Shown: piece by piece, positions 9,538 to 24,800 of the stretch | Position numbering within the stretch: position 1 is the stretch's first letter | Layout of the letters: each line of letters begins with the position of its first letter | Source: a virus | Lineage: Duplodnaviria > Caudoviricetes | Reading direction: 5' to 3' (one strand) | Virus record (IMG/VR): IMGVR_UViG_3300037484_000989 | Location: 1-36,391 of that record | DNA: 36,391 bases | Notes under the pieces: generated by a model | What the model was told of the DNA's origin: nothing | Databases searched by the model: none | What the model saw: the letters and a program-made list of their open reading frames with translations, nothing else | Translations under genes and position numbers: made by a program

Positions 9538-10041
9538 ATGGATATCAGGCAAATAGCATTCGAAACACCTCTAATGCAGGAGTCGCATTATATTGAGCGT
9601 TGGAAAGTATGGATCACAGTTCGTGAGCTTTCTGGTGAGGAAAGAGCGGAACTGCTTCAAAAGTCGACTGATATGATCAAAAAAGGCAATACAACCGAAG
9701 CGAGGGTTAATCTCAAAAAGCTCTACCCAATGCTCGCAATACTGACCACGCGCTATCCAGATCCTGCATGTCCCCCACATGATAATCATCCGCATTCCAG
9801 TGAATTCCCTGGTCTCAAGAACGCGATGGGGGAATATGTCACCCAGCCAACTGAGAAGGCTGGTGAGCTGGTTTTTAGTCCCACTGATATAGGTCCGCTC
9901 AACAAAACATCGGGCGCGATCCTAGAGCAAATCTCGCAGATTGCAGCTCCGATGTCAGGTCTCAGGCCGGAGGATGTAGACGAAAAAAAAGAAGGTTTGA
10001 ACGGAACGATTGTGGAGAGCGACTCTTATACATTCGCATAG
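9538..10041 (+). CDS. Tail assembly chaperone (gpG-like)
   Basis: TVRELSGEER motif, upstream of tape measure, slippery A-run near the 3' end. Confidence 0.85.
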   Translation: MDIRQIAFETPLMQESHYIERWKVWITVRELSGEERAELLQKSTDMIKKGNTTEARVNLKKLYPMLAILTTRYPDPACPPHDNHPHSSEFPGLKNAMGEYVTQPTEKAGELVFSPTDIGPLNKTSGAILEQISQIAAPMSGLRPEDVDEKKEGLNGTIVESDSYTFA

Positions 10042-10190
10042 CACGTGAGCATCATATGCCCGTGTGGATGATGCTAAAGCTTTTCCCGAGTACTGAGATT
10101 ACTGATTTAGCAGCACTATACCGGATAGAAGATGAAAGAGCGAAGAATCAAGATAAAGATGTTATAGAATTAGACTTGAGTGAGGATTAA
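9984..10190 (+). CDS. -1 frameshift extension of tail chaperone (gpGT-like)
   Basis: A8 run at 9983-9990. The -1 frame reads RRFERNDCGERLLYIRIAREHHMPVWMML...ELDLSED and stops 1 nt before the tape-measure ATG. Confidence 0.85.
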   Translation, partial: KKRRFERNDCGERLLYIRIAREHHMPVWMMLKLFPSTEITDLAALYRIEDERAKNQDKDVIELDLSED

Positions 10191-13100
10191 ATGCTTTTAG
10201 CTCAAATGGTAGTTGAGTATGTTGCTGATATAACAAAGCTTGTATCAGGCGTGCAATCTGCCACGAAAAGCATGAATAATATGCAGAGCGCGGCTAGTGC
10301 ATCCACATCCTCACTTACATCTAGCTTTAAAGGTGCGACGGCTTCTATCCAGGCGTTGACCAAGAAAGCAGAATCCGCTGGCCTCAATGTGTCTAAGCTT
10401 GCCTCATTGCAGTTAAAGGCAGGTGAGAGCGCCTCTCGTTTATCTGTAGCACAGGCATCGGCGGCTCTTGCACTCAAAAAAGCCGATGATATGGCATTAG
10501 CGGGCACAGCAAGCGCACAGCAGATAGCAGTAGCACAGGCAAGAGCTGCTTTAGCCGCTGATCATGTCAAGGTAGCAGAAGACGCTGCTGCCAACGCCAT
10601 GGCTAAAGTCGACGCGGAAAGCAAGAAGTTGTCCGAAGCGCTGCAAGATGCAACATCTAAGTCCTCCCTCCTTGCAAGGGGGGCAGATGCGCTTAAGGGA
10701 TCGCTTGAGTCTATGGGCGAGCAAGCGAAGGCGATCACAGCAGTAGGGCTTACAATAGCAGCTGGTGGGGCTCTAGCACTTGGCGGCGCTCTAGCGTCGA
10801 CCGTTGGTCCTGCAAAAGATTTTCAGGCAACCATGCTCAAGGTAAACGCTCTGGCTGGTCTTTCGAAGAAAGAGGTAGATGCTGCAAGTGACGCTATTCT
10901 TCGCATGGCAGGACGGGTGGGCAAGGGTCCCCAGGATCTTGCCGAAGGTCTGTACTACGTTGCCTCCGCTGGCTACGATGCTAAGACCAGCATGGAGATC
11001 CTAGAAGTATCGGCAAAAGCTGCTAGCGTTGGCATGACCAGCACTCAGAATGTTGCAAATGCGTTGACAGCGGCGCTGGCAATCTTTCCTGGCATGGAAG
11101 TAGCAGAAGCTATTGACATGATGACTAAAACCGTTAGCACAGGAAAAACCGAATGGGAAGATTATGCCGTTGTTGTTGGCAAGATGGCAAAAAATGCGTC
11201 AAATGCAGGAATTGCATTTGAAGAGGTAAATGCAGCATTTGCCGTTATGACAAACACCATGCCGTCTTCTGAGCAAGCTGCTGATGCTCTTAATGCACTT
11301 CTTCAGACATCATCTCGCTTTTCATTGCTTACAGACAGGGCAGAAAAGCTAAATCTGACATTTGATATTAGCAAGTATAAAACGCTGGATTTAGCTGGTA
11401 GAGTCGCGTATTTAAGCGAAGTGACCAATGGCAATACAGAGTCAATGACCACAATGTTGGGACAGGAGAATGCAGTCATTGCAGCGACTACAATAGCAGC
11501 AGAAGGCGCTGCCGATTATACCAAAGCACTTGATGGCATAACTAATTCGTCAGGTGCAGCAAATAGCGCATTTTCCACAGTAGCAGCAGGTGCGCAAGCA
11601 TCGTGGGACAAGGCCAAGGGATCACTTGAGTCGCTTCAGATTAAGATAGGCAATGCGCTTATTCCTGCTGTTACAGCTTTTACCGATGAAGTAGCACCAT
11701 TAATTGGAAAAATGATTGAATGGGCTGAAGAAAACCATATTGTTGAAAATGCTACAAATGCAATATCGGGCGCGTTAACAAGTGCCAGCAAAGAAATGTC
11801 CAAATTTGTAGATGTTGGCACAAGGGTCGTGACCTTCTTCAGGGAGAATGAAGGTGCAATGGCCGCATTCCAGATCACAGGGGCCATGTTGGCCGCTACG
11901 TTCACGGCCATTGCCATTGCAGCTACAGCGGCGGCCATTGCAGAGGCAGCTGCTGCATGGCCTATTCTGCTTGTGGTGGCAGCTGTAGCAGGCCTCACCG
12001 CCGCGTTTGTCTACTTCTATAATAATGTAAAACCGTTCCGCGACTTTATGGATGCTCTTGGTGTTGTTTTTATGAAAGTGTGGGCCGTGGTTGTTGAGCA
12101 GTTTACGCCCGCGTGGAATGAATTAAGTATTGCATTTAAAAAAATACAACCTGCACTTGAAGTAGTTGGCAAGATATTGGGTGGTGTTCTGCTTGTTGCG
12201 ATTGGGCTTGTGTTTGCTGCTGTTGTTGCACTTGCAATGGGTCTAGCTGCTTCAATAGGCGGTATTGTCCGTGTCTTTACGGGTATGGTCGAGATTGTAT
12301 CAGGCGTACTTGATGTTCTGGGTGGCGTATTCCTACTTGTTATGGATTTGATCACATTCCGATTTGATCAGCTTGGAGGGGATTTAGCTCGTATTGGTGG
12401 CGGTTTTGTCCAGATATTTAAAGGGCTGTGGGATGTGATCGCAGGGCTGTTTTTGACCGCAGCGGGCGTAATAGGGGGCATTCTTGTAGGGTTTTGTCAG
12501 GGGATCGTAGGCTTCTTCCAAGGGTTATGGGATACGCTGGTAGGGCATTCTATCATACCTGACATGATCAATGCCATTATTGCATGGTTTGCTAAGTTGC
12601 CAGTCGAAGTAGGTGCACATATTCAATCTATGTATAATACTGCAATAGCTAAATTAAATGAATTACTAACTGCTGCACAAACCAAAGCATCTGAAATTAT
12701 AAACGGCATTATTGCATGGTTTCAGCAATTGCCGGGAACTGTAGGTGCACATATTCAATCTATGTATAATACTGCAATAGCTAAATTAAATGAATTATTA
12801 ACTGCTGCACAAACCAAAGCATCTGAAATTGTTAACGGAATTATTGCATGGTTTCAGCAATTACCAGGACGTGCCGGTGCTGCTATTAGTTCTATGTCTG
12901 CAACTGTTGTGAATGCATTGAACGGTCTTGCAGCTTCTGCGTACCAGTGTGGATTAAATATTGTAAATAATATTGCAAATGGCATAAGAGCAGGAATAGG
13001 GGCAGTGGGAAGTGCAATAAACGCAGTAACCCAATACATTGCTGACCATCTGCCTAAATCTCCTGCAAAGATGGGGCCGCTAAAAGATCTTGCAAAGCAG

Positions 13101-13784
13101 GGAAATGAGATAAGCAACCAAATTGCAGCTGGTATTCATACCGGTATACCTCAAGTGCAATCGGCTATTCAAAATATGTCCAGTGATGTTGTGTCTACAT
13201 TGAATGGGCTTGCATCTTCTGTTCCAAGTCCTGCATCAAATACTGTAAATGGCATTATGGATTGGTTAAAGCTTCTCCCAGAGCGTGCAAGAGATACCAT
13301 TCAATCTATGGTCAACACTATTGTATCTACATTGAATGGTCTTGCATCTTCTGCATCCCAATCAGGCGCAAACATTACAAATATGATTGCAGATGGCATA
13401 AGAAGCGCCATGGGATCGGTAAAAAGTGCAATTGCAGCTCTTACCCAATACATTAGCGATCATCTGCCTAAATCTCCTGCAAAAATGGGACCTCTGATGC
13501 ATCTTGCAAATCAGGGAACTGAGATAAGCAATCAAATCAGCAAGGGGATGATTGCAGGTATACCACTTGTGCGGACTGCTATCAATCACGTGGTCGAACC
13601 AGTGGGCATTAATCTCAAAGGAGTGGAATCCACTCCTATCCAATCCCTTGCCAAGTCCCCCTTGCAAGGGGCAAGCAGCAAAGAAGACATTCATGTGCAT
13701 GTTTATTGGGATGGTAGGGATATAACGGATAAAATACAAACACGGGTGCTGAAGGAGAGTAGAAGGGGGCCAATAAGAGCATGA
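10191..13784 (+). CDS. Tape measure protein
   Basis: 1197 aa Ala-rich helical protein with TP901-like core, hydrophobic segments and W/F-spaced repeats. Confidence 0.95.
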   Translation: MLLAQMVVEYVADITKLVSGVQSATKSMNNMQSAASASTSSLTSSFKGATASIQALTKKAESAGLNVSKLASLQLKAGESASRLSVAQASAALALKKADDMALAGTASAQQIAVAQARAALAADHVKVAEDAAANAMAKVDAESKKLSEALQDATSKSSLLARGADALKGSLESMGEQAKAITAVGLTIAAGGALALGGALASTVGPAKDFQATMLKVNALAGLSKKEVDAASDAILRMAGRVGKGPQDLAEGLYYVASAGYDAKTSMEILEVSAKAASVGMTSTQNVANALTAALAIFPGMEVAEAIDMMTKTVSTGKTEWEDYAVVVGKMAKNASNAGIAFEEVNAAFAVMTNTMPSSEQAADALNALLQTSSRFSLLTDRAEKLNLTFDISKYKTLDLAGRVAYLSEVTNGNTESMTTMLGQENAVIAATTIAAEGAADYTKALDGITNSSGAANSAFSTVAAGAQASWDKAKGSLESLQIKIGNALIPAVTAFTDEVAPLIGKMIEWAEENHIVENATNAISGALTSASKEMSKFVDVGTRVVTFFRENEGAMAAFQITGAMLAATFTAIAIAATAAAIAEAAAAWPILLVVAAVAGLTAAFVYFYNNVKPFRDFMDALGVVFMKVWAVVVEQFTPAWNELSIAFKKIQPALEVVGKILGGVLLVAIGLVFAAVVALAMGLAASIGGIVRVFTGMVEIVSGVLDVLGGVFLLVMDLITFRFDQLGGDLARIGGGFVQIFKGLWDVIAGLFLTAAGVIGGILVGFCQGIVGFFQGLWDTLVGHSIIPDMINAIIAWFAKLPVEVGAHIQSMYNTAIAKLNELLTAAQTKASEIINGIIAWFQQLPGTVGAHIQSMYNTAIAKLNELLTAAQTKASEIVNGIIAWFQQLPGRAGAAISSMSATVVNALNGLAASAYQCGLNIVNNIANGIRAGIGAVGSAINAVTQYIADHLPKSPAKMGPLKDLAKQGNEISNQIAAGIHTGIPQVQSAIQNMSSDVVSTLNGLASSVPSPASNTVNGIMDWLKLLPERARDTIQSMVNTIVSTLNGLASSASQSGANITNMIADGIRSAMGSVKSAIAALTQYISDHLPKSPAKMGPLMHLANQGTEISNQISKGMIAGIPLVRTAINHVVEPVGINLKGVESTPIQSLAKSPLQGASSKEDIHVHVYWDGRDITDKIQTRVLKESRRGPIRA
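10668..10681. repeat. 14-bp palindrome copy 2 (CTCCTTGCAAGGGG, 1 mismatch)
   Basis: Read directly; encodes LLARG. Confidence 0.9.
12575..12866 (+). repeat. 132-bp (44-aa) near-identical tandem duplication in tape measure
   Basis: GTAGGTGCACATATTCAATCTATG starts at 12609 and 12741. Confidence 0.92.
13658..13671. repeat. 14-bp palindrome copy 3 (perfect)
   Basis: Read directly; encodes PLQG. Confidence 0.95.
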
Positions 13785-16700
13785 CAGCATCTAATATCAC
13801 TCTTACTATTGCAGGCTCAACATATCCGATTAAAGAGAAATCTTGGAGTTTACCCGATAAGATTGAAGAGCGCTCTAAATGTTCATTCATTGTGCAGGAT
13901 GACAATGCTGCATACTCATTTAAAAAAGGGCAATTAGTTACATTAACGGACACTCTACAAGGATTGCTCTTTTCAGGTTCTATCCATACAATTAGGAGAA
14001 CAAAACAGACAGGTGCAGGCATGACAACACCTGTACTGCATAGCATTGAATGCGATGATAAAACAGCAATACTTGATGCAAAAACATCAAATAAGCAGTA
14101 CATAAGCCAGCATGCAGGTGCGATAGTTGTTGATCAAATAAAAGACTTAGGACCATTGGGTATCCTTGCCAACTATGCAATTGATGTGGATGACACACAA
14201 GCGGACTTTGCAGCTGGCACGCTCAGTGGTACAGTAGCAGCAAACAGTGTAGACAATGGTAATCTTGAATTATCTCATGCAGGAGCTAAGACAATAATTA
14301 CAGAGAATACAACATCTATATTTAGCTCAGGAACGCTTGACCGCGTTACATCCGCCTCTAATACACTAGCGCCTACTTCTACACCTGCTATCAAGATTGT
14401 TGGTACACAATCGCTTGTTTCTGACTCTAATGCATATACATACATCAAGATCTTCTCATCAGGCTCAATATCTATTATTGCTAGTAGATATCTTGCCTAT
14501 GATATCTGGATAGATGCATCCTCTCCAGATATGAGAGCAGGAGTAGATATAATTTTTACGGACGGTTCTACGCTTCGTGGCTTGACACAGACGTATCCAT
14601 TTCATGATCTCCAAAATCTTTTACCCCATCCAAGTCAAAATCTTGATGGTTTTGCCAATGACAAATGGTATCATCGCAAATTTCTACTGGATAATTTTAA
14701 TGGAAAGACTATTTCACATGTAGATGTGGCAATTGAAGGTGATAAAGCAGGAACATATGCAATATATATAAAGAACATACTTGAAGTAGATGTAAATAAT
14801 GGAGTTATTAATACATTTTTCAATGGCACATTAAATGTAAATCCGCCTAAGCAGATGCAAAACAGCGGATATAGCAATATTGCATGCACTGTAGTCGATA
14901 CTTATGATTGTTCAACTGCAAATCGTGTAAGCCCTTCTTATAACATAGATCAAACAAAAATAGCGAAAGACTCGTTTGTCTCGTGGGCAGGGATAATACC
15001 AGAAAATACAAATATTAAACTGGAATATAGTTTGAATGGCGGCAATAGTTACATTGAGTGCGTAAATAACGCACCTCTGCCCAGTTTGATTGCCGGTCTT
15101 TCGCTTGCATCCAAAACAATCACATTCAGACAATCCTTTCAGCAATTAATAGGTGCATCTCCTGAGTCAAAACCAATATTAACAAATTTTATTTGTACTC
15201 TTAATCCTTCATATAGCGCTTCAAAATCAGATGTAACTATTTCTGCGACTACTAGTGCTGAATGGAATGCATCTGGCACATCATTTACAAATACGCAAGC
15301 CCCCTCTATCTTTCTCCTTCTGCCTGGGGGCGTCCGTGAATGGAGTAAGGCAAACACGGACAATATGACAATCTATGGTGGAGGATCGTCAGGACCATCT
15401 ACCACGACCGTCAATCAACATTGCAATTACAAGAAATTTTGGATTCAGCTTGGCAATAATTTAGAAGGTCGATCACGGCTTGATTGGCTGGGACAAGGAG
15501 ATAACGCTCTTCTTGAATGCGACATATATACTGATGTTTCGTATGGGAAAGTCGGAGTTGTGTACCGTACAACTGGGTGGAGCAATTGGGATTCAAATTA
15601 TGCATATGCCGTTGAGGTTACCCCAAGTACTGTAGCACTGCAAAAAGGTTCAAATAGTAGCCAATCATCAACTGGAAGCCGTACGCAACTTGCATCTGTA
15701 TCAATATCCATTGGCTCTAATTCTTGGCATCAATTAAAAGTTATTTTTAATGGATCTAACCATCAAGTATGGTTGGATGATATAAAATATATAGATGTAA
15801 ATGATGGCACATATACGGGATCTGGATATGTCGGACTCAGAACATCCAATTCAAGTACGACAGAAGGATACCAGGGACAATTTAATAATTTTGGATTAAC
15901 GGTGCCAGGGCTTACTGGATCATGGTTGTCGGCATCCACATCGTTGGCAAGCGCCAGTACCTATGGTGGCAGTGTCGTTACGTGGATAGATGGGAGCGTT
16001 GGCAAGCAGTCCACACTTGTTCTTGTAGAGTCAACAATCAATGGTGGTTCTAGTTGGCAGGCGGTGACCAATGGTGGATCTGTCCCGAATTTGACAGCTG
16101 GCCAGTCGCTATCAGGCATAAATCTTCGATTTAGAATTACGCTTACTACTGCTAGCGCGGCATCATTGCCTCAAATTCAATACTTCGTATGTCGCGTTCT
16201 GGGTGGATTTAGCAGTTCAGGCACACGCATAAGCAAGGCTCTCCCCTTGCAAGGGGTAGGTACGTGTGGGAGTACGCTCGTATTCTGGAATGCGATCACG
16301 CCGACGAACACAACGGTTGTTGTGGCCACAAGCCTAGATGGTTCTTCTTATACTAATGTGGCAAATGGCGGCTCTATTTCAGGCCTCAATCAGCAACCAG
16401 CCCCAACAATTGACTCATTCAATCTTTTGACAAGCTCAAATTATGTTAATACATTCCGATCAGGGGGCTCTTTGGCCTCCTGGGTGTGGGACACGGCAAG
16501 CAGCCGTTTAACAGTAACAGGCGGATCCCACGGCCTCCTCATCTATAACGGTATTGCCTCCTCAGCAAATGTGAGTGTGTACGCAGACTTAGACAGATCC
16601 GATAGCGGCGGAATTGTCTTGCATTATGCCAATAGTGGAAGCAGCATGTATTATTGCGTGATTGGGGATAATCTAGCGTCGTCTAATCCAAATACAGTAT

Positions 16701-18346
16701 ATATTTACAAATATGATTCTGGTGGTCCGTATACATATGGAAATACAAGCATAAGTTTCATTCGTGGCACTTATCACCGTTTTATCTTCCAATATTCCAA
16801 TGACAGATTAATTGTCTCTATGGACGGTGTAGAGCTTATAAATGCACTTGACAGCAGTACTCCTATTACGTCAGGGCAGTCTGGAATATATAACAATACA
16901 GGCGTGTCACGGTTTTATAATCTCAGAATACAGCCATCAGGTGATAGCTTAACCAACAAGAAAGTTTACACACGCATAACACTCACATCTACAGATCCTG
17001 CTGCTACACCTCAAGTATCTGATTTCACCACTCTTGTTACTAATCCAAATATTGGCGCGGGTTCACTTATTCCAACGGCAGATTATCGCAATACATACAG
17101 AAGTGATAATATAAGCGATTTAGCCAAACAATCTAACTATTATTGGAATATCAAGCCTGATGGCTCTTTCATTTTTACAGATCGCAAAACAGTACCGGCA
17201 CCGTGGTTACTGACAGGAAATGACGCGCTTGTATCAGGGTTAGAGGTAGAGGACTCTTCTGACCTCTACAGGAATAGGCAAACCATAACAGGCGTTCTGG
17301 ATATAATTGCACTTAATGAGGCAAAGCTTGGTGATGGCACTGCAACCTCTTGGACACTAAAATACAATGTTGTTTCTATGGACTCTATGGTGCTTAATGG
17401 ACAACCTGTCACATTTGGTGTTAAAGGCATTGATACAGGAAAAGACTTCTATTATGAGGTGGGATCTAACTCAATTGCAGCTGATACAGAGGGAACGCTT
17501 TTAATCGCAACTGATGAGCTATATGTCTCTTATGTAGGCCAATTTGAGACAACTGCCACACGAGACAACACAGGGCAATTCTCAGGGACCATCTCGCAAA
17601 GAGACTACATCGCTCAGTCAGGCTTGACAGTGCCCTCTCTCACCCTTCTCAATCAAGCGTCAGCTTCACAAAATGCCAGTGGAAGCACGGATGATATCGA
17701 TGTAAGTTTGTGTCGACGTATTGCTCTTGATATTAATATTACCGCTCAGAGTGGTACATCGCCTACTGTGCAATTCTTCCTGGAGAGAAAAACTGCCACT
17801 GGCCTCTATTCAATTCTCTATCAATCATCGGTGATCAGCTCGGGATCTACTCAGATTTCGACTTCAATCGGTCCTGGATGCGTAACAAAAGAGTCTTTGG
17901 GTCTTACCGTGCGCTTACGCTGGACAATCGGTGGAAGTGCATCCCCAACTAAAACATTCTCTGCATCAATCATTGGTCACATTGACGCTAGTCTTGCAGG
18001 TATTGGAGTAATTGAGGCAGTGGAAGATGTGTCAGGACAAAATATCAATGTTGCAGGTGCCAATGCCCTGGCAGATAGCCGCTTGCAGCAATACGGTGTT
18101 ATAGGACGCATCCTCCATTTTGAGACGCAACGCACAGGGCTTGCAGCTGGTCAGTATCTTAATTGTTTCTTGCCAGAGCTGGGGCTAAATGACGTTGCAC
18201 TGCTTATAACAGGCGTAACGCGTACACAAGCGCTTGTAGTGGATAACGGTTCACCTTCTCAACTTTATAATCATAGCGTAGAAGCGATAGAAGCATCTAT
18301 CCTTCCTTCATGGCAGAAGGCAATGTCAGACGCAGGAGTATCATAA
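13781..18346 (+). CDS. Large tail-tip/hub (Tal-like) protein with inserted lectin-like beta-sandwich domains
   Basis: Follows tape measure; hub-like segment SDLAKQSNYYWNIKPDG; ConA-like segments (WHQLKVIFNG...YIDVND.TY..GYVGLR). Confidence 0.75.
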   Translation: MTASNITLTIAGSTYPIKEKSWSLPDKIEERSKCSFIVQDDNAAYSFKKGQLVTLTDTLQGLLFSGSIHTIRRTKQTGAGMTTPVLHSIECDDKTAILDAKTSNKQYISQHAGAIVVDQIKDLGPLGILANYAIDVDDTQADFAAGTLSGTVAANSVDNGNLELSHAGAKTIITENTTSIFSSGTLDRVTSASNTLAPTSTPAIKIVGTQSLVSDSNAYTYIKIFSSGSISIIASRYLAYDIWIDASSPDMRAGVDIIFTDGSTLRGLTQTYPFHDLQNLLPHPSQNLDGFANDKWYHRKFLLDNFNGKTISHVDVAIEGDKAGTYAIYIKNILEVDVNNGVINTFFNGTLNVNPPKQMQNSGYSNIACTVVDTYDCSTANRVSPSYNIDQTKIAKDSFVSWAGIIPENTNIKLEYSLNGGNSYIECVNNAPLPSLIAGLSLASKTITFRQSFQQLIGASPESKPILTNFICTLNPSYSASKSDVTISATTSAEWNASGTSFTNTQAPSIFLLLPGGVREWSKANTDNMTIYGGGSSGPSTTTVNQHCNYKKFWIQLGNNLEGRSRLDWLGQGDNALLECDIYTDVSYGKVGVVYRTTGWSNWDSNYAYAVEVTPSTVALQKGSNSSQSSTGSRTQLASVSISIGSNSWHQLKVIFNGSNHQVWLDDIKYIDVNDGTYTGSGYVGLRTSNSSTTEGYQGQFNNFGLTVPGLTGSWLSASTSLASASTYGGSVVTWIDGSVGKQSTLVLVESTINGGSSWQAVTNGGSVPNLTAGQSLSGINLRFRITLTTASAASLPQIQYFVCRVLGGFSSSGTRISKALPLQGVGTCGSTLVFWNAITPTNTTVVVATSLDGSSYTNVANGGSISGLNQQPAPTIDSFNLLTSSNYVNTFRSGGSLASWVWDTASSRLTVTGGSHGLLIYNGIASSANVSVYADLDRSDSGGIVLHYANSGSSMYYCVIGDNLASSNPNTVYIYKYDSGGPYTYGNTSISFIRGTYHRFIFQYSNDRLIVSMDGVELINALDSSTPITSGQSGIYNNTGVSRFYNLRIQPSGDSLTNKKVYTRITLTSTDPAATPQVSDFTTLVTNPNIGAGSLIPTADYRNTYRSDNISDLAKQSNYYWNIKPDGSFIFTDRKTVPAPWLLTGNDALVSGLEVEDSSDLYRNRQTITGVLDIIALNEAKLGDGTATSWTLKYNVVSMDSMVLNGQPVTFGVKGIDTGKDFYYEVGSNSIAADTEGTLLIATDELYVSYVGQFETTATRDNTGQFSGTISQRDYIAQSGLTVPSLTLLNQASASQNASGSTDDIDVSLCRRIALDINITAQSGTSPTVQFFLERKTATGLYSILYQSSVISSGSTQISTSIGPGCVTKESLGLTVRLRWTIGGSASPTKTFSASIIGHIDASLAGIGVIEAVEDVSGQNINVAGANALADSRLQQYGVIGRILHFETQRTGLAAGQYLNCFLPELGLNDVALLITGVTRTQALVVDNGSPSQLYNHSVEAIEASILPSWQKAMSDAGVS
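16243..16256. repeat. 14-bp palindrome copy 4 (perfect)
   Basis: Read directly; encodes PLQG. Confidence 0.95.
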
Positions 18347-18693
18347 TGAGTTCAAGCATACTTTACACATTACCATCGTTAGCGCGTACAGCGAGCGGTA
18401 ACAGTGAGAACATTAACACCACTTCGTCCTTTGAGCTTGCATTTGATGCAAACACGACACTTGTAAGCGGTACAAGCCCGACTCTTCAATTTGCCATTGA
18501 TCGGCTGGGATCTGATGGTGTGTGGTATAACATTTGGTTAAGCCCGGTGCGGAATACAACGGGCTTTGACTCAAAATCAATTGGTACAGGTCTTGCATTG
18601 CCTGAGTCATCAGGAAGCGCCATTCGCATTCGATGGATTATCGGTGGCACATCACCGTCGTTTACATTTAGTATATCTCTCATTGGTAAATAG
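18346..18693 (+). CDS. Small beta-sandwich virion protein, paralog of a domain in the 1521-aa protein
   Basis: TAATG overlap, RBS AGGAG; SGTSPTLQF...RIRWIIGG. Confidence 0.75.
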   Translation: MSSSILYTLPSLARTASGNSENINTTSSFELAFDANTTLVSGTSPTLQFAIDRLGSDGVWYNIWLSPVRNTTGFDSKSIGTGLALPESSGSAIRIRWIIGGTSPSFTFSISLIGK

Positions 18694-18702
18694 GAGACAA
18701 AA

Positions 18703-20619
18703 ATGACACTTACTAGTTTTGCAGTAGACACATGTTTAACAGGCGGAAGAGGAAGCGTAAATGCCATCAGTCCTGGGTCTGATGGCAATTTATGGTCACA
18801 AGTGGTTGGTAACCAGACTCCCTCTTTTGCTTCAAATCATATCATAATGACCTATCTGGACAGTAGCGCTCGTTTTGTCTATACCTATGCAAGCATGTCG
18901 GAAAGTGACACAGAAGCACTTGTTAAGGTTGTACAAGGTGGGAATACTAATGCCGTTGTGGGCGTTGCATTGAGGTGTTCAGATGCAAACCACTATTATT
19001 TTGCAAATATTCATTCAAATGTAGTAGAGATCGGTAAAAGCATAAGTGGCTCTGATACCATTTTAGGGTCTGCTGCATTTTCTACATCAATTGATACTGA
19101 GTATTACATGCGTTTTCAAGCTATTGGTTCTACCTTAAAGGTAAAAGTGTGGGATGCACTAACAACAGAGCCAACGCCATGGAACGTACTTGCTTCAGAT
19201 AATACTCTTTCCTCTGGCCTGTTTGGAATTTATGGTGCCCCTGTTGGTGGTGATCTTGTAAAATTTAGTCTTTTTAGTGCAACAAATGGAGAAGTTGTCT
19301 CAAACGTTCCTGAGCCAACAACGCTCGTTGGAACAAACATCATCGGACTTGCCGCAAGCGCTGATGAAGCGCTATTGGTACCTTCAATAGATATCAGCGC
19401 ATACGAGATGTGGACGCTTGAAGTAGACACAATAGCCACTGGAGGCGTTCTTACATTTCAAGGTTCCAATGATGGCATCAATTTTCAGTCAGTATCGGCT
19501 TATGATGCGGATGGAGGCGTGGCTGGCACAACAACTAATGCTACGGGTATATTCTATGGATATCGGGTATACCGATATCTGCAAGTAAGACAAACATCGT
19601 GGACATCTGGGTCCACAACGGGAACGCTGCTTCTCTATGCAAAATCTGTGTCCTCCTTGCAAGGGGTAAGTGCGGTGTCACAAAGCGGATCATGGACAGT
19701 TGTTGCAAATGCGGGAACTAACTTGAATACATCGCTAATTGCACTGGAGAGCGGTGGAAACCTTGCATCTGCAAAAACAGATCTTGATGCAATATCTGCA
19801 ACAACAGGCGCAACAACTGATGCAGCTATAACAACTGATGCCAACGGCAGCATTTCGGGCAAACTAAGGGGACTTGTCAAAATCCTCAATGATATCTGGG
19901 ATAGTGGGAACCATCGAATAGAAGTCGATGGGAGCGGGATAACACAACCCATATCGGCCTCTACCTTGCCACTACCTACGGGAGCGTCGACATCAGCTAA
20001 GCAACCCGCGTTGGGAACAGCTGGTACAGCTTCTAGTGATGTGATTTCCGTGCAAGGATTAGCTGGTATGACCGCTCTGAAGACTGACGGGAGCGCGACG
20101 ACCCAGCCTGTATCAGCGGCTTCATTGCCTTTGCCAACGGGAGCGTCAACATCTGCCAAACAGCCTGCTCTAGGAACAGCTGGGACAGCTTCTAGTGATG
20201 TTCTCTCTGTGCAAGGATTAGCTAGCATGACACCCCTACTGGCCAATCCTTCGACTCCCTATCCATCCGCCGCCACACCTATCACGGCGGCATCTGGCAA
20301 TGTCGCAAATAGCAGCGGAGTGGCAACACTGGTGGGAGCTGCCAGTAAAACAACCTACATTACTGGTTTTGAAATTACGGGAAGCGGGGCGACAGTAGGA
20401 CTGCCTGTGGTTGCAACCGTTGCAGGAGTAATAACCGGAACACTTTCCTACATTTATACAGCCGTTACAGGTGTCTTGGCCCCAAATACACCCTGTGTTG
20501 TTGCATTCAATCCACCGATACCATCAAGTACAACAAATACCGATATTGTGGTAACGTGCCCCGCTCTTGGAGCCGGAAACACAAATAATGCTGTAGTTGC
20601 ACATGGGTATCTATTATGA
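18703..20619 (+). CDS. Tail fibre/adhesin-like structural protein
   Basis: N-terminal lectin-like domain (RFQAIGSTLKVKVW...EP..W), Ser/Thr-rich shaft with 53-aa duplication. Confidence 0.7.
   Translation: MTLTSFAVDTCLTGGRGSVNAISPGSDGNLWSQVVGNQTPSFASNHIIMTYLDSSARFVYTYASMSESDTEALVKVVQGGNTNAVVGVALRCSDANHYYFANIHSNVVEIGKSISGSDTILGSAAFSTSIDTEYYMRFQAIGSTLKVKVWDALTTEPTPWNVLASDNTLSSGLFGIYGAPVGGDLVKFSLFSATNGEVVSNVPEPTTLVGTNIIGLAASADEALLVPSIDISAYEMWTLEVDTIATGGVLTFQGSNDGINFQSVSAYDADGGVAGTTTNATGIFYGYRVYRYLQVRQTSWTSGSTTGTLLLYAKSVSSLQGVSAVSQSGSWTVVANAGTNLNTSLIALESGGNLASAKTDLDAISATTGATTDAAITTDANGSISGKLRGLVKILNDIWDSGNHRIEVDGSGITQPISASTLPLPTGASTSAKQPALGTAGTASSDVISVQGLAGMTALKTDGSATTQPVSAASLPLPTGASTSAKQPALGTAGTASSDVLSVQGLASMTPLLANPSTPYPSAATPITAASGNVANSSGVATLVGAASKTTYITGFEITGSGATVGLPVVATVAGVITGTLSYIYTAVTGVLAPNTPCVVAFNPPIPSSTTNTDIVVTCPALGAGNTNNAVVAHGYLL
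19653..19666. repeat. 14-bp palindrome copy 5 (CTCCTTGCAAGGGG, 1 mismatch)
   Basis: Read directly; encodes SLQG. Confidence 0.9.
19945..20232 (+). repeat. 159-bp (53-aa) internal duplication
   Basis: LPLPTGASTSAKQPALGTAGTASSDV.SVQGLA.MT occurs twice. Confidence 0.9.
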
Positions 20620-23522
20620 CCTGGTTTAATACCAGTTATCTCTATAAGAAGAGCATAACGATCGATCACGTAAAAGTTGTTAATGCTGATCAGACAAATT
20701 TCCCAGTGCTGATCAGCTTGACTGATGCTGATCTCAAAACAATTGGTAATGGAGGGAAGGTCCAGAACAGCTCTGGCTTTGATATTATTTTCACGAATAG
20801 TGCGGAGGCAACAAAGCTTGATCATGAAATAGAGAAATACGTCTCAACTACCGGTGAAATTGCGATGTGGGTATGCGTACCCACTCTTGCAACGGCTACC
20901 GATACCGTCATTTATATGTATTTTGATAATACTGCTATATCATCGTCTCAAGAGAATATAACGGCTGTTTGGAATAGCAATTATGCTGCTGTATATCACA
21001 TGAAAGAAGCAGCAGGAACAAGCAATAGCATAAAGGATTCGACATCAAACGCTAATAGTGGCACTCCTTATACAACATTTAATTCAGCAATTGGAGATAT
21101 ATCAACTAGTTCTGGTAAAATTGATGGTGCGCAATCATTTAATGGATCATCACGCGCTGTTGAGGTAAATAACAGCGCTTCGCTTACCATTTCCGGTCAA
21201 AACACACTGACTATTAGTGCATGGATAAAACGAACATCAACAGGTTCAGTAGGTTCTATTGTTGTGAAGGGACAAGGCGGCGTTGGTGGGTATATGTTAG
21301 GGGTAGGAGAGTCCCCTGCCACTATTAATCAATTTAAAATGACAAAATATGGCGTTGCTGATATCGCGACAGGAACACTACCGGCAGATACAAATTGGCA
21401 TTATGTGGCAGAAGTAGCAGATAGTACCAACACGCGCGTATATGTTGATGGATCGCAATCAGGTACGGACGGAAATACATCAAATTTCCAATCATCTACT
21501 GCAAAACTGCATATTGGCAACGATGATGCTGCGTACTGGGATGGATTGATTGATGAGATCAGGATATCGAATATTGCACGTTCTGCTAATTGGATTGCAA
21601 CCGAATACAATAATCAGAATAGTCCATCGACATTTTATGCAGTTGGTTCAATTCAATCTCAATCAATCACACGTACTATAACATCTACCGCTGCATTATC
21701 AGCATCAAGCACGAATACACGTACAGTTACTAGTACAGCCACATTGCTGAGGACAAGTACGCGTATTGTTACATCTACAGCGTCATTGTTGCAAACGAAT
21801 ATACGTACTATTGCATCCACAGCTGTACTAGCAGATACAAAGACGCGTACTATCACATCCGATGCATCACTATTGACAACAAATACACGCATTATTACAT
21901 CTACTGCTGCATTGTTGATAATAAATACACGTACTATTGCATCTACAGCTACACTGTTGGCAACAAATACACGTACTATAATCTCAACAGTATCATTCAG
22001 CAAGACGCGTACTATCACATCCGATGCATCCTTATCGATAACTAATGCCCGTACTATCACATCTGATGCTGCATTATTAATAACAAAGACGCGTACTATT
22101 GCATCTACAGCTACACTGCTTGTAACTGCAAATAGAAGTATTATAACAAGTACTGCCTTGTTAACAGCTAGTACACGCACCATAACATCTAATGTTGCAT
22201 TATTAACTGTTAGCACGCGGGCTATTACAAGTACAGCTGCACTAGTGATAAACAGGCGTACTATCACATCTACCGCTTCTTTATCGAATATCAGCACTAG
22301 TGCACGCACTATCACTAGTGACGTATCGCTGGTGATAAACAGGCGTACTATCACATCTACCGCTTCTTTATCAGGCATTAGCACAAATACGCGCACTATC
22401 TCATCAACTGCTCCGTTATTGACAACAAATACACGTACTATCGCTTCAACTTCTGCATTACTAGTTGTTATTGTTAGGCCTATTGCGTCTGATACAGCAT
22501 TGTTGTCTATCAATACGCGTGTTATTACATCTACTACTGCCTTATCAATAACAAATACGCGTACAGTTACATCTGATGTTGCCTTACTTGTTACTGGCGC
22601 ACGTACTATAATCTCAACAGTATCATTTAGCAATGCCCGTACTATTGCTAATACTGCTGCTTTGTTGCAGACAAATGCCCGTACTATTGCTAATACTGCT
22701 TCATTGCTTGTAACTACAAATAAAAGTATTATAACAAGTGCTGCCTTCTTAACAGCTAATACACGTACTATAACTACTAATGCTGCATTATTAACTGTTA
22801 GTGCACGAGCTATCACAAGTAATGCTGCATTATTAACTGTTAGTGCACGAGCTATCACAAGTAATGCATCACTGGCTATAAACAGGCGTATTATTACATC
22901 AACAGTGGCGCTATCTGGTACAGCTGCGAATACACGTACTATCACAAGTACAGCATCATTGTTGCAGGAAAACACCAGGACCGTTATCAGCACTGCTGCA
23001 TTATTAACAACTAATACACGCACTATTACTAGTACGGTGTCTCTGGTAAATGTTAGGACTGTTATCAGTACTGCTGCATTATTGACAACTAATACACGCA
23101 TTATCACTAATACAGCAGCTCTACTTACGGTAAATGCGCGTAGTATCACATCTACAGTTGTCCTACTTGCTATCAATGCGCGTGTCATTGCCAGTGAAAT
23201 GGCATTGATAGCAAGCTTGAATAGAAGTATTTCAGCAAGTGCTGCACTATTAGCAATAAATACGCGTACTATCACTTCAACATCCTCATTGTTGCAGACG
23301 AATACGCGTATTATTACATCTACAGTATCGCTGGCAGATGTGAAGTCACGAGCAATTATCAGTGATGCTGCGCTATTGTCTACTAATACACGTACTGTTA
23401 CTAGTACGGCATCACTATCGGGATCATCGCCACCGCCAGCGCAAAATTGTACGCTTTATACGAGAAGTGGCTATATTGCGCTTTACGTAAGAAGTGGCGA
23501 AATCACGCTTTATACAAGATAA
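20616..23522 (+). CDS. DUF2341 + LamG-like protein with about 42 tandem 14-aa repeats
   Basis: N-terminal YKKSITID...NFPVLI...DIIFT...LDHEIE...WV..P (DUF2341-like); LTISAWIK...WHYVA...GLIDEIRISNIARS (LamG); then xRTITSTAALLxxN repeats. Confidence 0.85.
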   Translation: MTWFNTSYLYKKSITIDHVKVVNADQTNFPVLISLTDADLKTIGNGGKVQNSSGFDIIFTNSAEATKLDHEIEKYVSTTGEIAMWVCVPTLATATDTVIYMYFDNTAISSSQENITAVWNSNYAAVYHMKEAAGTSNSIKDSTSNANSGTPYTTFNSAIGDISTSSGKIDGAQSFNGSSRAVEVNNSASLTISGQNTLTISAWIKRTSTGSVGSIVVKGQGGVGGYMLGVGESPATINQFKMTKYGVADIATGTLPADTNWHYVAEVADSTNTRVYVDGSQSGTDGNTSNFQSSTAKLHIGNDDAAYWDGLIDEIRISNIARSANWIATEYNNQNSPSTFYAVGSIQSQSITRTITSTAALSASSTNTRTVTSTATLLRTSTRIVTSTASLLQTNIRTIASTAVLADTKTRTITSDASLLTTNTRIITSTAALLIINTRTIASTATLLATNTRTIISTVSFSKTRTITSDASLSITNARTITSDAALLITKTRTIASTATLLVTANRSIITSTALLTASTRTITSNVALLTVSTRAITSTAALVINRRTITSTASLSNISTSARTITSDVSLVINRRTITSTASLSGISTNTRTISSTAPLLTTNTRTIASTSALLVVIVRPIASDTALLSINTRVITSTTALSITNTRTVTSDVALLVTGARTIISTVSFSNARTIANTAALLQTNARTIANTASLLVTTNKSIITSAAFLTANTRTITTNAALLTVSARAITSNAALLTVSARAITSNASLAINRRIITSTVALSGTAANTRTITSTASLLQENTRTVISTAALLTTNTRTITSTVSLVNVRTVISTAALLTTNTRIITNTAALLTVNARSITSTVVLLAINARVIASEMALIASLNRSISASAALLAINTRTITSTSSLLQTNTRIITSTVSLADVKSRAIISDAALLSTNTRTVTSTASLSGSSPPPAQNCTLYTRSGYIALYVRSGEITLYTR
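21669..23423 (+). repeat. Array of about 42 degenerate repeats (modal 42 bp / 14 aa)
   Basis: Consensus TRTITSTAALLxxN, unit length 12-16 aa, counted by eye. Confidence 0.92.
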
Positions 23523-23533
23523 GGAGTATCAAA

Positions 23534-24055
23534 ATGGCAGCAGCGGTATGTCAGGGGCAAATAGGAACAGGAGCAACAGTTTCATGGGCAAACGTCGAAG
23601 CGGGATGCAAATATAATCTGGCCGATTCCGCCACGAGCACAACATCCATTGCAGTGCCAACTGCTACAGGGACCGTGTTCAGTTGGATAAAAAATCTCGT
23701 TCTAGCGGTCACGACCACAGGAACGACAACCATTAATAATCGAAAAATCTCAATGGGCAGTTCACCGGCAACTGGTTTGCAGCTCTTCTGGAAGCAACTT
23801 GCCGTTGCATCCTATGCACAATCAGCATCAGGTAATCGGCCAGCTTCAAGCGGATCCAATGGTGCAACGCCATCTGGCTACACGCTTATGACGACTACAG
23901 CAGCATTGTATGATAATACGAGCGTTGCAACATCTGGCAGTGGTCCAAATGGGGATATGGCAGTTTGCGTGCTGGGAGTGGACTTTTCGTATGCTGGCGG
24001 TCCTGGAAGCGCAATAGCACTGCCTAATGTGGTATTAACTTACGACGAATTTTAG
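23534..24055 (+). CDS. Small beta-rich structural protein (candidate fibre subunit)
   Basis: RBS AAGGAG before ATG 23534; Thr/Ser/Ala/Gly-rich; ends in strand-like VVLTYDEF. Confidence 0.7.
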   Translation: MAAAVCQGQIGTGATVSWANVEAGCKYNLADSATSTTSIAVPTATGTVFSWIKNLVLAVTTTGTTTINNRKISMGSSPATGLQLFWKQLAVASYAQSASGNRPASSGSNGATPSGYTLMTTTAALYDNTSVATSGSGPNGDMAVCVLGVDFSYAGGPGSAIALPNVVLTYDEF

Positions 24056-24092
24056 TGATTTGACAATAAGTTATTAAATAAAGGAGTAAAAC

Positions 24093-24431
24093 ATGACAGC
24101 AGATGCATACAAATGGTGTGCCACTTATCGCGATGGCACCCAGATCCCAGAGTACGATGCATCGCGGCCTGATGGTCGTGGCTTTGCGGAGGTGAACGCC
24201 TCTCAAGTCTCGACTCTTGAGTTGTCCAGTGCCCACAAAGTAGCTGTCCCCCATGATGCCACGCCTGTCTTTTTCAGGCGTCGGCGTATGGAGCTGAACC
24301 CAGGTGATGACAGTGTGGTGAGTAACGCTACGACGCACTGTATAGGTTGGAGGCAAGAAGAGAGCGCCTGTTACCTCTTTGTTCATGAGGACGGCTCTAC
24401 GCTTCTCACAAGCGATCTCCAAGCAGTCTAG
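24093..24431 (+). CDS. Hypothetical protein (possible assembly chaperone)
   Basis: RBS AAGGAG; charged, cytoplasmic-type composition inside a structural module. Confidence 0.7.
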   Translation: MTADAYKWCATYRDGTQIPEYDASRPDGRGFAEVNASQVSTLELSSAHKVAVPHDATPVFFRRRRMELNPGDDSVVSNATTHCIGWRQEESACYLFVHEDGSTLLTSDLQAV

Positions 24432-24440
24432 GAGGGTTTC

Positions 24441-24800
24441 ATGTCGCTAGTAGTACCCATTGATGATTTTACACCTATCTTCGTTGGGGATATTGCAAAT
24501 CCTTTTTCTATCCAAATTTTGCATGAGAATGGGTTCATGAGCATACTGGGTGCTACTATCACCATGAAGATGCAAAATGTTGATAGTCCTGCAACAATTA
24601 AGACGTGCAGTGGAAGCTGGACAATAGATGCATCAGATAATGGTAAGGCATCATATGTGTATCAAGCTGCTGATGTTGACACTATAGGTAACTGGTATAT
24701 GTGGGTTAAGATAGTGATAAATTCTAAAGTTGTGCATCCAGACGATGGCACCGGTGTTCCCAAGATTTTAGTGATAAAGCCTCTACCAACGGGAGTATAA
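24441..24800 (+). CDS. BppU-like (baseplate upper N-domain) protein
   Basis: VGD...F.IQI......I.GATITMKM...GKASYVY...DVDT.G.W...V.I pattern. Confidence 0.65.
   Translation: MSLVVPIDDFTPIFVGDIANPFSIQILHENGFMSILGATITMKMQNVDSPATIKTCSGSWTIDASDNGKASYVYQAADVDTIGNWYMWVKIVINSKVVHPDDGTGVPKILVIKPLPTGV

Follow-up and report, generated by a model that had tools for sequence, protein, structure and literature searches.

What might a phage build from a protein that carries 42 copies of a 14-residue unit? The question is raised by what we call the rope protein, a product of 968 amino acids (aa) encoded on the plus strand at 20616..23522 of the IMG/VR virus record IMGVR_UViG_3300037484_000989 (Duplodnaviria; Caudoviricetes). 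The window analyzed here is this entire linear record, 36,391 nucleotides long, with an estimated completeness of 60%. The rope protein consists of a head, a rope of 42 repeats and a C-terminal tail, and is followed on the same strand by three small genes, designated S (173 aa, 23534..24055), C (112 aa, 24093..24431) and B (119 aa, 24441..24800). An earlier reading of this DNA (the original prediction) had proposed that each repeat donates a beta-strand to one small subunit, the product of S, and that the long protein templates a fibre. From related loci and predicted complexes we conclude that rope and S belong to a real and recurrent module whose product is most likely a rope-templated fibre of beads. 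A groove of S would receive each 14-residue repeat as a beta-strand; many copies of S, presumably tens per rope, would thread along the rope to give a beads-on-a-string fibre on the virion, with a length that follows the repeat count and with the LamG head at its tip. The fibre would be attached through a 9-residue tail and the BppU-like protein B, or, in relatives, because the rope is itself fused to a tail-tip protein; C would act as an assembly factor, and the fibre would serve for loose, long-range attachment to sugars of the host surface.

The repeat array begins at aa 353 and covers 21672..23432. Its spacings are mostly of 14 residues (31 cases), the others being of 16 (4), 13 (3) and 12 (3), and its consensus is R-T-I-T-S-T-A-A-L-L-x-T-N-T. 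Position 1 is Arg in 41 units and Lys in one, whereas position 3 (Ile or Val) and position 9 (Leu or Phe) keep their type in 42/42. Identity at a lag of 14 residues is 0.43, compared to 0.136 +/- 0.014 in 2000 shuffles (maximum 0.176). The near-invariant Arg, the 42 repeats, the DUF2341/LamG head and the three downstream genes had all been described in the original prediction and were found again, the open reading frames included. The scarcity of Gly and Pro holds for the window copy (4 Gly and 3 Pro among 587 aa) but, as regards Pro, not for 15 relatives, where Pro occupies position 4 in 113 and position 8 in 25 of 255 units. A super-period of 28 residues, which would be a sign of dimeric beads, was ruled out, identity being 5.08/10 at lag 1 and 5.15 at lag 2; this lack of odd/even alternation favours equivalent sites. 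A profile of the rope gave no match among PDB sequences.

On the N-terminal side of the array, the head contains a DUF2341 domain (aa 55-117, 20778..20966; Pfam PF10102, expectation value (E) 4.1e-5, above the cut-off) and a LamG, or concanavalin A-like, domain (aa 177-328, 21144..21599; Laminin_G_3, PF13385, E 6.7e-23), the latter presumably binding sugars. On the C-terminal side, three 9-residue units of the type TLYxRSG (23448..23519), overlooked in the original prediction, form a putative docking tail for an adaptor; they are present in the free-standing ropes of relatives and co-occur with the B gene.

The association of rope and S was examined in a single modelling job combining four copies of S with aa 366-425 of the rope, i.e. 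four repeats. The three runs scored 0.69, 0.75 and 0.75, compared to 0.00, 0.29 and 0.00 for the controls; the score mark is reached by 116 of 157 solved pairs and by 2 of 215 mismatched ones, counts that hold only roughly for this job. At least 83% of the contacts are common to the runs, and the predicted local distance difference test (pLDDT) of the rope is at least 53, compared to 25 beside an unrelated partner (one 60-aa chain only). In the best run two copies of S bind the first and the third repeat through an identical surface (residues 21-29, 35-41, 50, 82, 147, 149 and 156-173). The closest contacts set repeat position 7 against I39, S50, L82, L147, V149 and L163, and position 9 against I39, V41 and V149; rope positions 5-8 are in register with residues 25-29 of S, and the rope runs beside residues 156-173. 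The model thus supports a predicted binding of the rope strand in the groove of S. By extending the register, the repeat Arg would lie opposite residues 21-22 of S, and its partner would be a conserved acid, either Glu22, which fits the register better, or the C-terminal Asp171/Glu172. On the originally proposed pairing of Arg with the YDE end of S the model does not decide: the C-terminal residues do belong to the modelled interface, and the register points to Glu22. Among S homologues position 22 is acidic in 105/114, Glu172 is present in 119/120 and Asp171 in 101/121.

The second line of evidence is the recurrence of the module. Loci carrying S came from collections of viruses (7, then 23), genomes (3) and metagenomes (52). 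After merging of duplicates 64 distinct S genes remained, 36 of which were dropped for having less than 4 kb on a side. Among the 28 kept, one contig supplies two, and the window and its 97% relative count as one; the loci are related to one another, so that the counts are not independent. A repeat array on the same strand as S was found by a loose pattern in 26/28 of these loci and by eye in 27/28, the additional one being the divergent 14-residue array of L027; C is present in 27/28. With a stricter matrix arrays appear only on the S strand, with 3 to 68 units, and even ropes of 3-4 units are accompanied by S. In the reverse direction, a search with the rope DNA motif returned ten contigs, nine of which contain S, the tenth ending 1.4 kb upstream of C; a query with the rope protein returned one locus only. 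Ropes were sorted by hand into two forms, those that are free-standing and carry the 9-residue tail and those that make up the front part of a tail-tip protein. The heads differ among relatives: LamG occurs in three other ropes, a tail-collar domain in L068, and unnamed domains in most. An obligate set of four genes was rejected. Of the co-occurrence originally envisaged, the part concerning rope, C and variable repeat number stands, but most loci with a rope fused to another protein lack B.

Several observations weigh against this reading. In L039 (5311-6196) S and C are present, but neither the 5.3 kb upstream nor the 10 kb downstream contain a rope; L071 has only about three short units, and the loose pattern also yields opposite-strand arrays in 3/28 loci. 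Seven of the ten rope-motif contigs were already known from the S searches; of the three fresh ones, two carry S. No match to S was found in 50,697 deposited phage records, and no cultured phage has S or C. The S tree does not support a co-evolution of bead and repeat length: the 15-residue type does not form one clade and requires four changes, a number as low being obtained in 95 of 500 shuffles (14-residue repeats are found in 21/21 members of the well-supported core clade and 15-residue repeats only outside it). As to the complex, any open groove may accept a hydrophobic beta-strand peptide in models of this kind. Confident contacts concern two of the four S copies, on repeats 28 residues apart, and rope residues 16-24 have none; the model therefore does not establish one S per repeat. 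The proposed strand donation to the small subunit is supported by a docking score above that of the best control, with confident contacts for half of the copies.

The rope may alternatively fold by itself, as a homotrimeric beta-spiral or beta-solenoid shaft for which S would be a low-copy anchor or cap. The strict period and the alternating pattern of the repeats agree with such a shaft, as do the rope-less surroundings of S in L039 and the succession of head, shaft and anchor, a layout usual for phage fibres. We nevertheless consider it unlikely. The repeats show no conserved Gly/Pro turn, tolerate Pro within the strand and vary from 12 to 16 residues in length; the S interface is predicted on two separate repeats, the rope is poorly ordered beside the unrelated partner, and S persists where a rope has only 3-4 units. 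This weighing drew on sequence features and one control complex, the rope having been modelled only alongside partner chains; the same limit counts against our reading.

The S gene starts at an ATG after AAGGAG and its product ends in VVLTYDEF. A single-sequence search gave 368 matches, and a profile recovered at least 661 homologues among 8000 scored candidates; at 50% identity the family comprises 131 clusters; conservation is strong (70-75% over most of the 120 matches listed). No match was found in Pfam, PHROGs or PDB sequences (three profiles against the latter), and the Atlas matches are unnamed viral clusters only (0.95-0.96). A distant subfamily of 48 matches is found at L027:9956-13200, with C and with a Lys-started 14-residue rope that fronts a tail-tip-like protein; judging from it, the S family extends beyond the core sampled here. 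In P0157, P0167, P0186, P0224 and P0228 the S domain is part of larger proteins of 250-1051 aa, and some of these match it in two stretches.

The monomer of S, modelled from 122 sequences, is an all-beta protein predicted as a beta-sandwich with a pLDDT of 96.7 and a predicted template modelling score of 0.90. No regular secondary structure is seen in the segments lining the groove (residues 21-46 and 151-165). The N-terminus forms strands 5-12 and 17-20, residues 1-20 being confidently folded into the domain, and the model shows no free N-terminal donor extension. No clear fold match was found in the PDB: the top matches, all weak, are self-polymerising pilins, TasA and cannulae, including chaperone-usher pilins and TasA-type fibres (CooA 4HJI, CfaB 3F83/3F84, FimA, EcpA). 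The weak likeness to pilin folds completed by a donated strand speaks for the original prediction. S itself does not qualify as a chaperone-usher pilin: besides its folded N-terminus, general family scans found no chaperone or usher family among the 31 proteins of the window.

These resemblances raise the possibility that S polymerises head to tail, as pilins do or as the gp81 trimers of the neck fibre of cyanophage A-1(L), the repeat protein serving to nucleate or cap the polymer or running alongside it. The bead chain of A-1(L) is indeed described without a rope in the available text (PMC10966104). Such a polymer is highly improbable: S lacks the free donor extension, its groove is occupied by the rope in the model, and the many equivalent repeats would be superfluous.

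In another reading S is a transient chaperone, which keeps the hydrophobic strands soluble until assembly and is absent from the virion. The same interface and the same co-occurrence would be expected, and pilus chaperones also work by strand complementation. This is very unlikely in our view, S being very conserved and the strand-receiving protein being a structural bead in the solved analogues, as far as their available descriptions go. A chaperone role could moreover be filled by C, the third conserved gene.

We retain S as the probable bead, and turn to its partners. C has no family, PDB or Atlas match (Pfam, PHROGs, PDB-sequence and deposited-phage searches), and it is its co-occurrence with rope and S that points to a possible assembly factor or chaperone. 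L034 (4356-5177) and L091 contain two C-like genes each, one of them strongly divergent. For B the label 'BppU-like' is weak. The window protein has no Pfam match, BppU_N (PF10651) included, but BppU_N is matched by 2 of 14 other candidate B genes (E 2.6e-4 and 0.031, neither reaching the curated cut-off). For B, too, PHROGs, PDB sequences and deposited phages yielded no significant match. No match to Gp77 (PF23148) was found among 15 B candidates. A narrow profile detects B in 11/28 well-flanked S loci. A broader one detects it in 15/17 loci with a free rope (14 of the 15 matches were seeds, only 8 of which were recovered strongly when left out) compared to 2/14 loci with a fused rope, both matches in the latter lying outside the module. 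This concentration suggests that B mounts the free rope and is dispensable for the fused one. B would thus be an adaptor that mounts the free-standing rope on the virion through putative binding of the 9-residue tail.

Variations of the rope were observed in several relatives. One phage contains two S paralogues and two ropes (L019:3902-7357 and 9795-12932): in the first rope a GH5 (cellulase-family) domain is flanked by no more than 3-4 units in all, and the second has 25 units with Pro at position 8. Globular domains are interspersed between the repeat runs in L014:2152-8808, L020:11104-14664, L058:5992-10287 and L023:5191-7119; the runs may be coated tethers linking several heads in series. 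At L002:8151-9730 the rope gene is split by a frame change after about nine units, no B gene lies downstream, and the end of the second piece is, in place of the 9-residue tail, a domain similar to a 115-aa protein of the window (see below). By eye, the module adjoins portal or capsid genes in L023, L058, L070 and L103, and not the tail region, which hints at a mounting on the head or neck. Extra genes, endonuclease-like by eye, stand beside S or between S and C in L007:10536-11705, L017:6159-6767, L018:9024-9920 and L076.

How does the proposed fibre compare to known ones? According to the original prediction no phage system of this form had been described. This no longer holds: the fibres of GP4, Bas63 and A1002 have been solved, so that the design it proposed is already known (PMC13730344; PMC12609058). 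The available parts of these reports allow the following comparison. In the Pseudomonas podophage A1002, 11 gp40/gp41 dimers, each in an augmented sheet with the nozzle-rope protein gp39, extend over about 300 Å; about 226 rope residues are involved, about 20 per dimer, and the beads are similar to GP4 gp80 (PMC13730344). As in the system of the window, the rope carries repeated docking sites, forms an augmented beta-sheet with the beads and ends in a globular domain; it also forms part of a tail protein, an arrangement shared by about half of the relatives of the window system. The differences lie in the phage type of the latter, a siphophage, in its 42 (3-68) units of 14 aa, in the absence of a Gp80 match for S and in the extra conserved gene, the window system being known here from genes and models. 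The Felixounavirus Bas63 has whisker dimers on a collar rope, which passes through grooves and completes incomplete beta-sandwiches like 'beads on a string' (PMC12609058). The collar-whisker complex of Bas63/Sf14 differs by its two dimers per rope, its dimer-forming N-terminal helices and the lack of a distal lectin head; the S model contains no helix of four residues or more, hence no such dimer helix. Fibre I of the Ralstonia podophage GP4 consists of five gp80 dimers on a separate rope interlocked with the Ig-like adaptor gp77 (PMC12609058; PMC13730344). Its separate rope gene, adjoining small bead gene and Ig-like adaptor recall the layout of rope, S and BppU-like protein, but it has five dimers only and gp80 (PF23140; PDB 8JOU) shows no sequence similarity to S. 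None of 122 S members matches PF23140 at E <= 1, whereas gp80 itself scores 6.5e-41, and hhalign of S against the single gp80 sequence gave a probability of 0.1%. The gp80 and whisker beads are not in the best 50 of 48,161 chains compared to S, nor among the Foldseek matches listed, a result with which kinship is still possible. The period also differs, 14 residues in the window compared to about 20 rope residues per bead dimer in A1002. A Gly-rich period of 10/20 residues is seen in a 325-aa neighbour in GP4, which we take to be the GP4 rope. Finally, A-1(L) possesses a neck fibre (gp82-gp81-gp80) whose model is a head-to-tail chain of 14 gp81 trimers (PMC10966104). It shares with the proposed fibre a bead chain of about 100 nm made of a small subunit and a distal carbohydrate-binding module, and differs by the lack of any repeat rope in what is available of its description. 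Our searches for phage fibres based on donor-strand or beta-strand complementation found no literature, and no description of the 14-residue rope family was found, subscription journals being largely outside the search.

Judged from sequence, what is new relative to the solved fibres is the bead family, the 14-residue period, the far longer ropes and the modular mounting. The length of the rope was computed as 194-205 nm when fully extended and as about 78 nm at the packing of A1002; the fibre of roughly 200 nm previously announced is thus an upper bound. A more ambitious interpretation, which we advance tentatively and at somewhat less than even chances, is that S, a bead resembling pilins, arose independently and has no kinship with Gp80, each copy taking one 14-residue strand. 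Rope, S and the 112-aa factor would then form a portable three-gene kit able to coat any repeat run and so to produce tethers whose length (3 to 68 beads, up to about 300 nm in the extended state) is encoded. These would be adaptor-mounted or fused to the tail tip, with exchangeable lectin or hydrolase domains at their tip or between runs, and would represent a second class of phage fibre with encoded length, reached by convergence.

The genomic setting is that of a long-tailed phage, whose structural module in the window comprises terminase, portal, capsid, neck, tail tube and tape measure protein (10191-13784). There follow a 1521-aa protein, called tail-tip by position only (13781-18346), a beta-rich protein of 115 aa (18346-18693) and a protein of 638 aa (18703-20619), neither of which has a family match. 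By eye, a segment similar to the 115-aa protein lies within the C-terminal part of the tail-tip protein. The 638-aa protein contains two copies of a repeat of about 50 residues, is translationally coupled to the rope gene and is missing from most related loci. The gene order runs from the tail-tip protein to rope, S, C and B, then to amidase and holin. Shine-Dalgarno-like sites precede S, C and B (AAGGAG, AAAGGAG and AGGAGG), as announced for the three small genes; the rope gene has none and overlaps the stop of the upstream gene. This pattern is compatible with, though no proof of, an unequal output of rope and small proteins.

These results assign to three gene families, unnamed but recurrent in environmental phages, a role that can be tested. 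Rope-templated fibres, so far comprising 2-11 beads in podophages and myophages, would be extended to siphophages, where ropes have up to 68 sites and the bead is apparently different. If bead number does follow repeat number, the length of the fibre would be written in one gene, as the tape measure protein sets the length of the tail. The module would then allow the control of appendage length to be tested directly, and would make it simple to obtain protein nanofibres of defined length whose tip can be exchanged.
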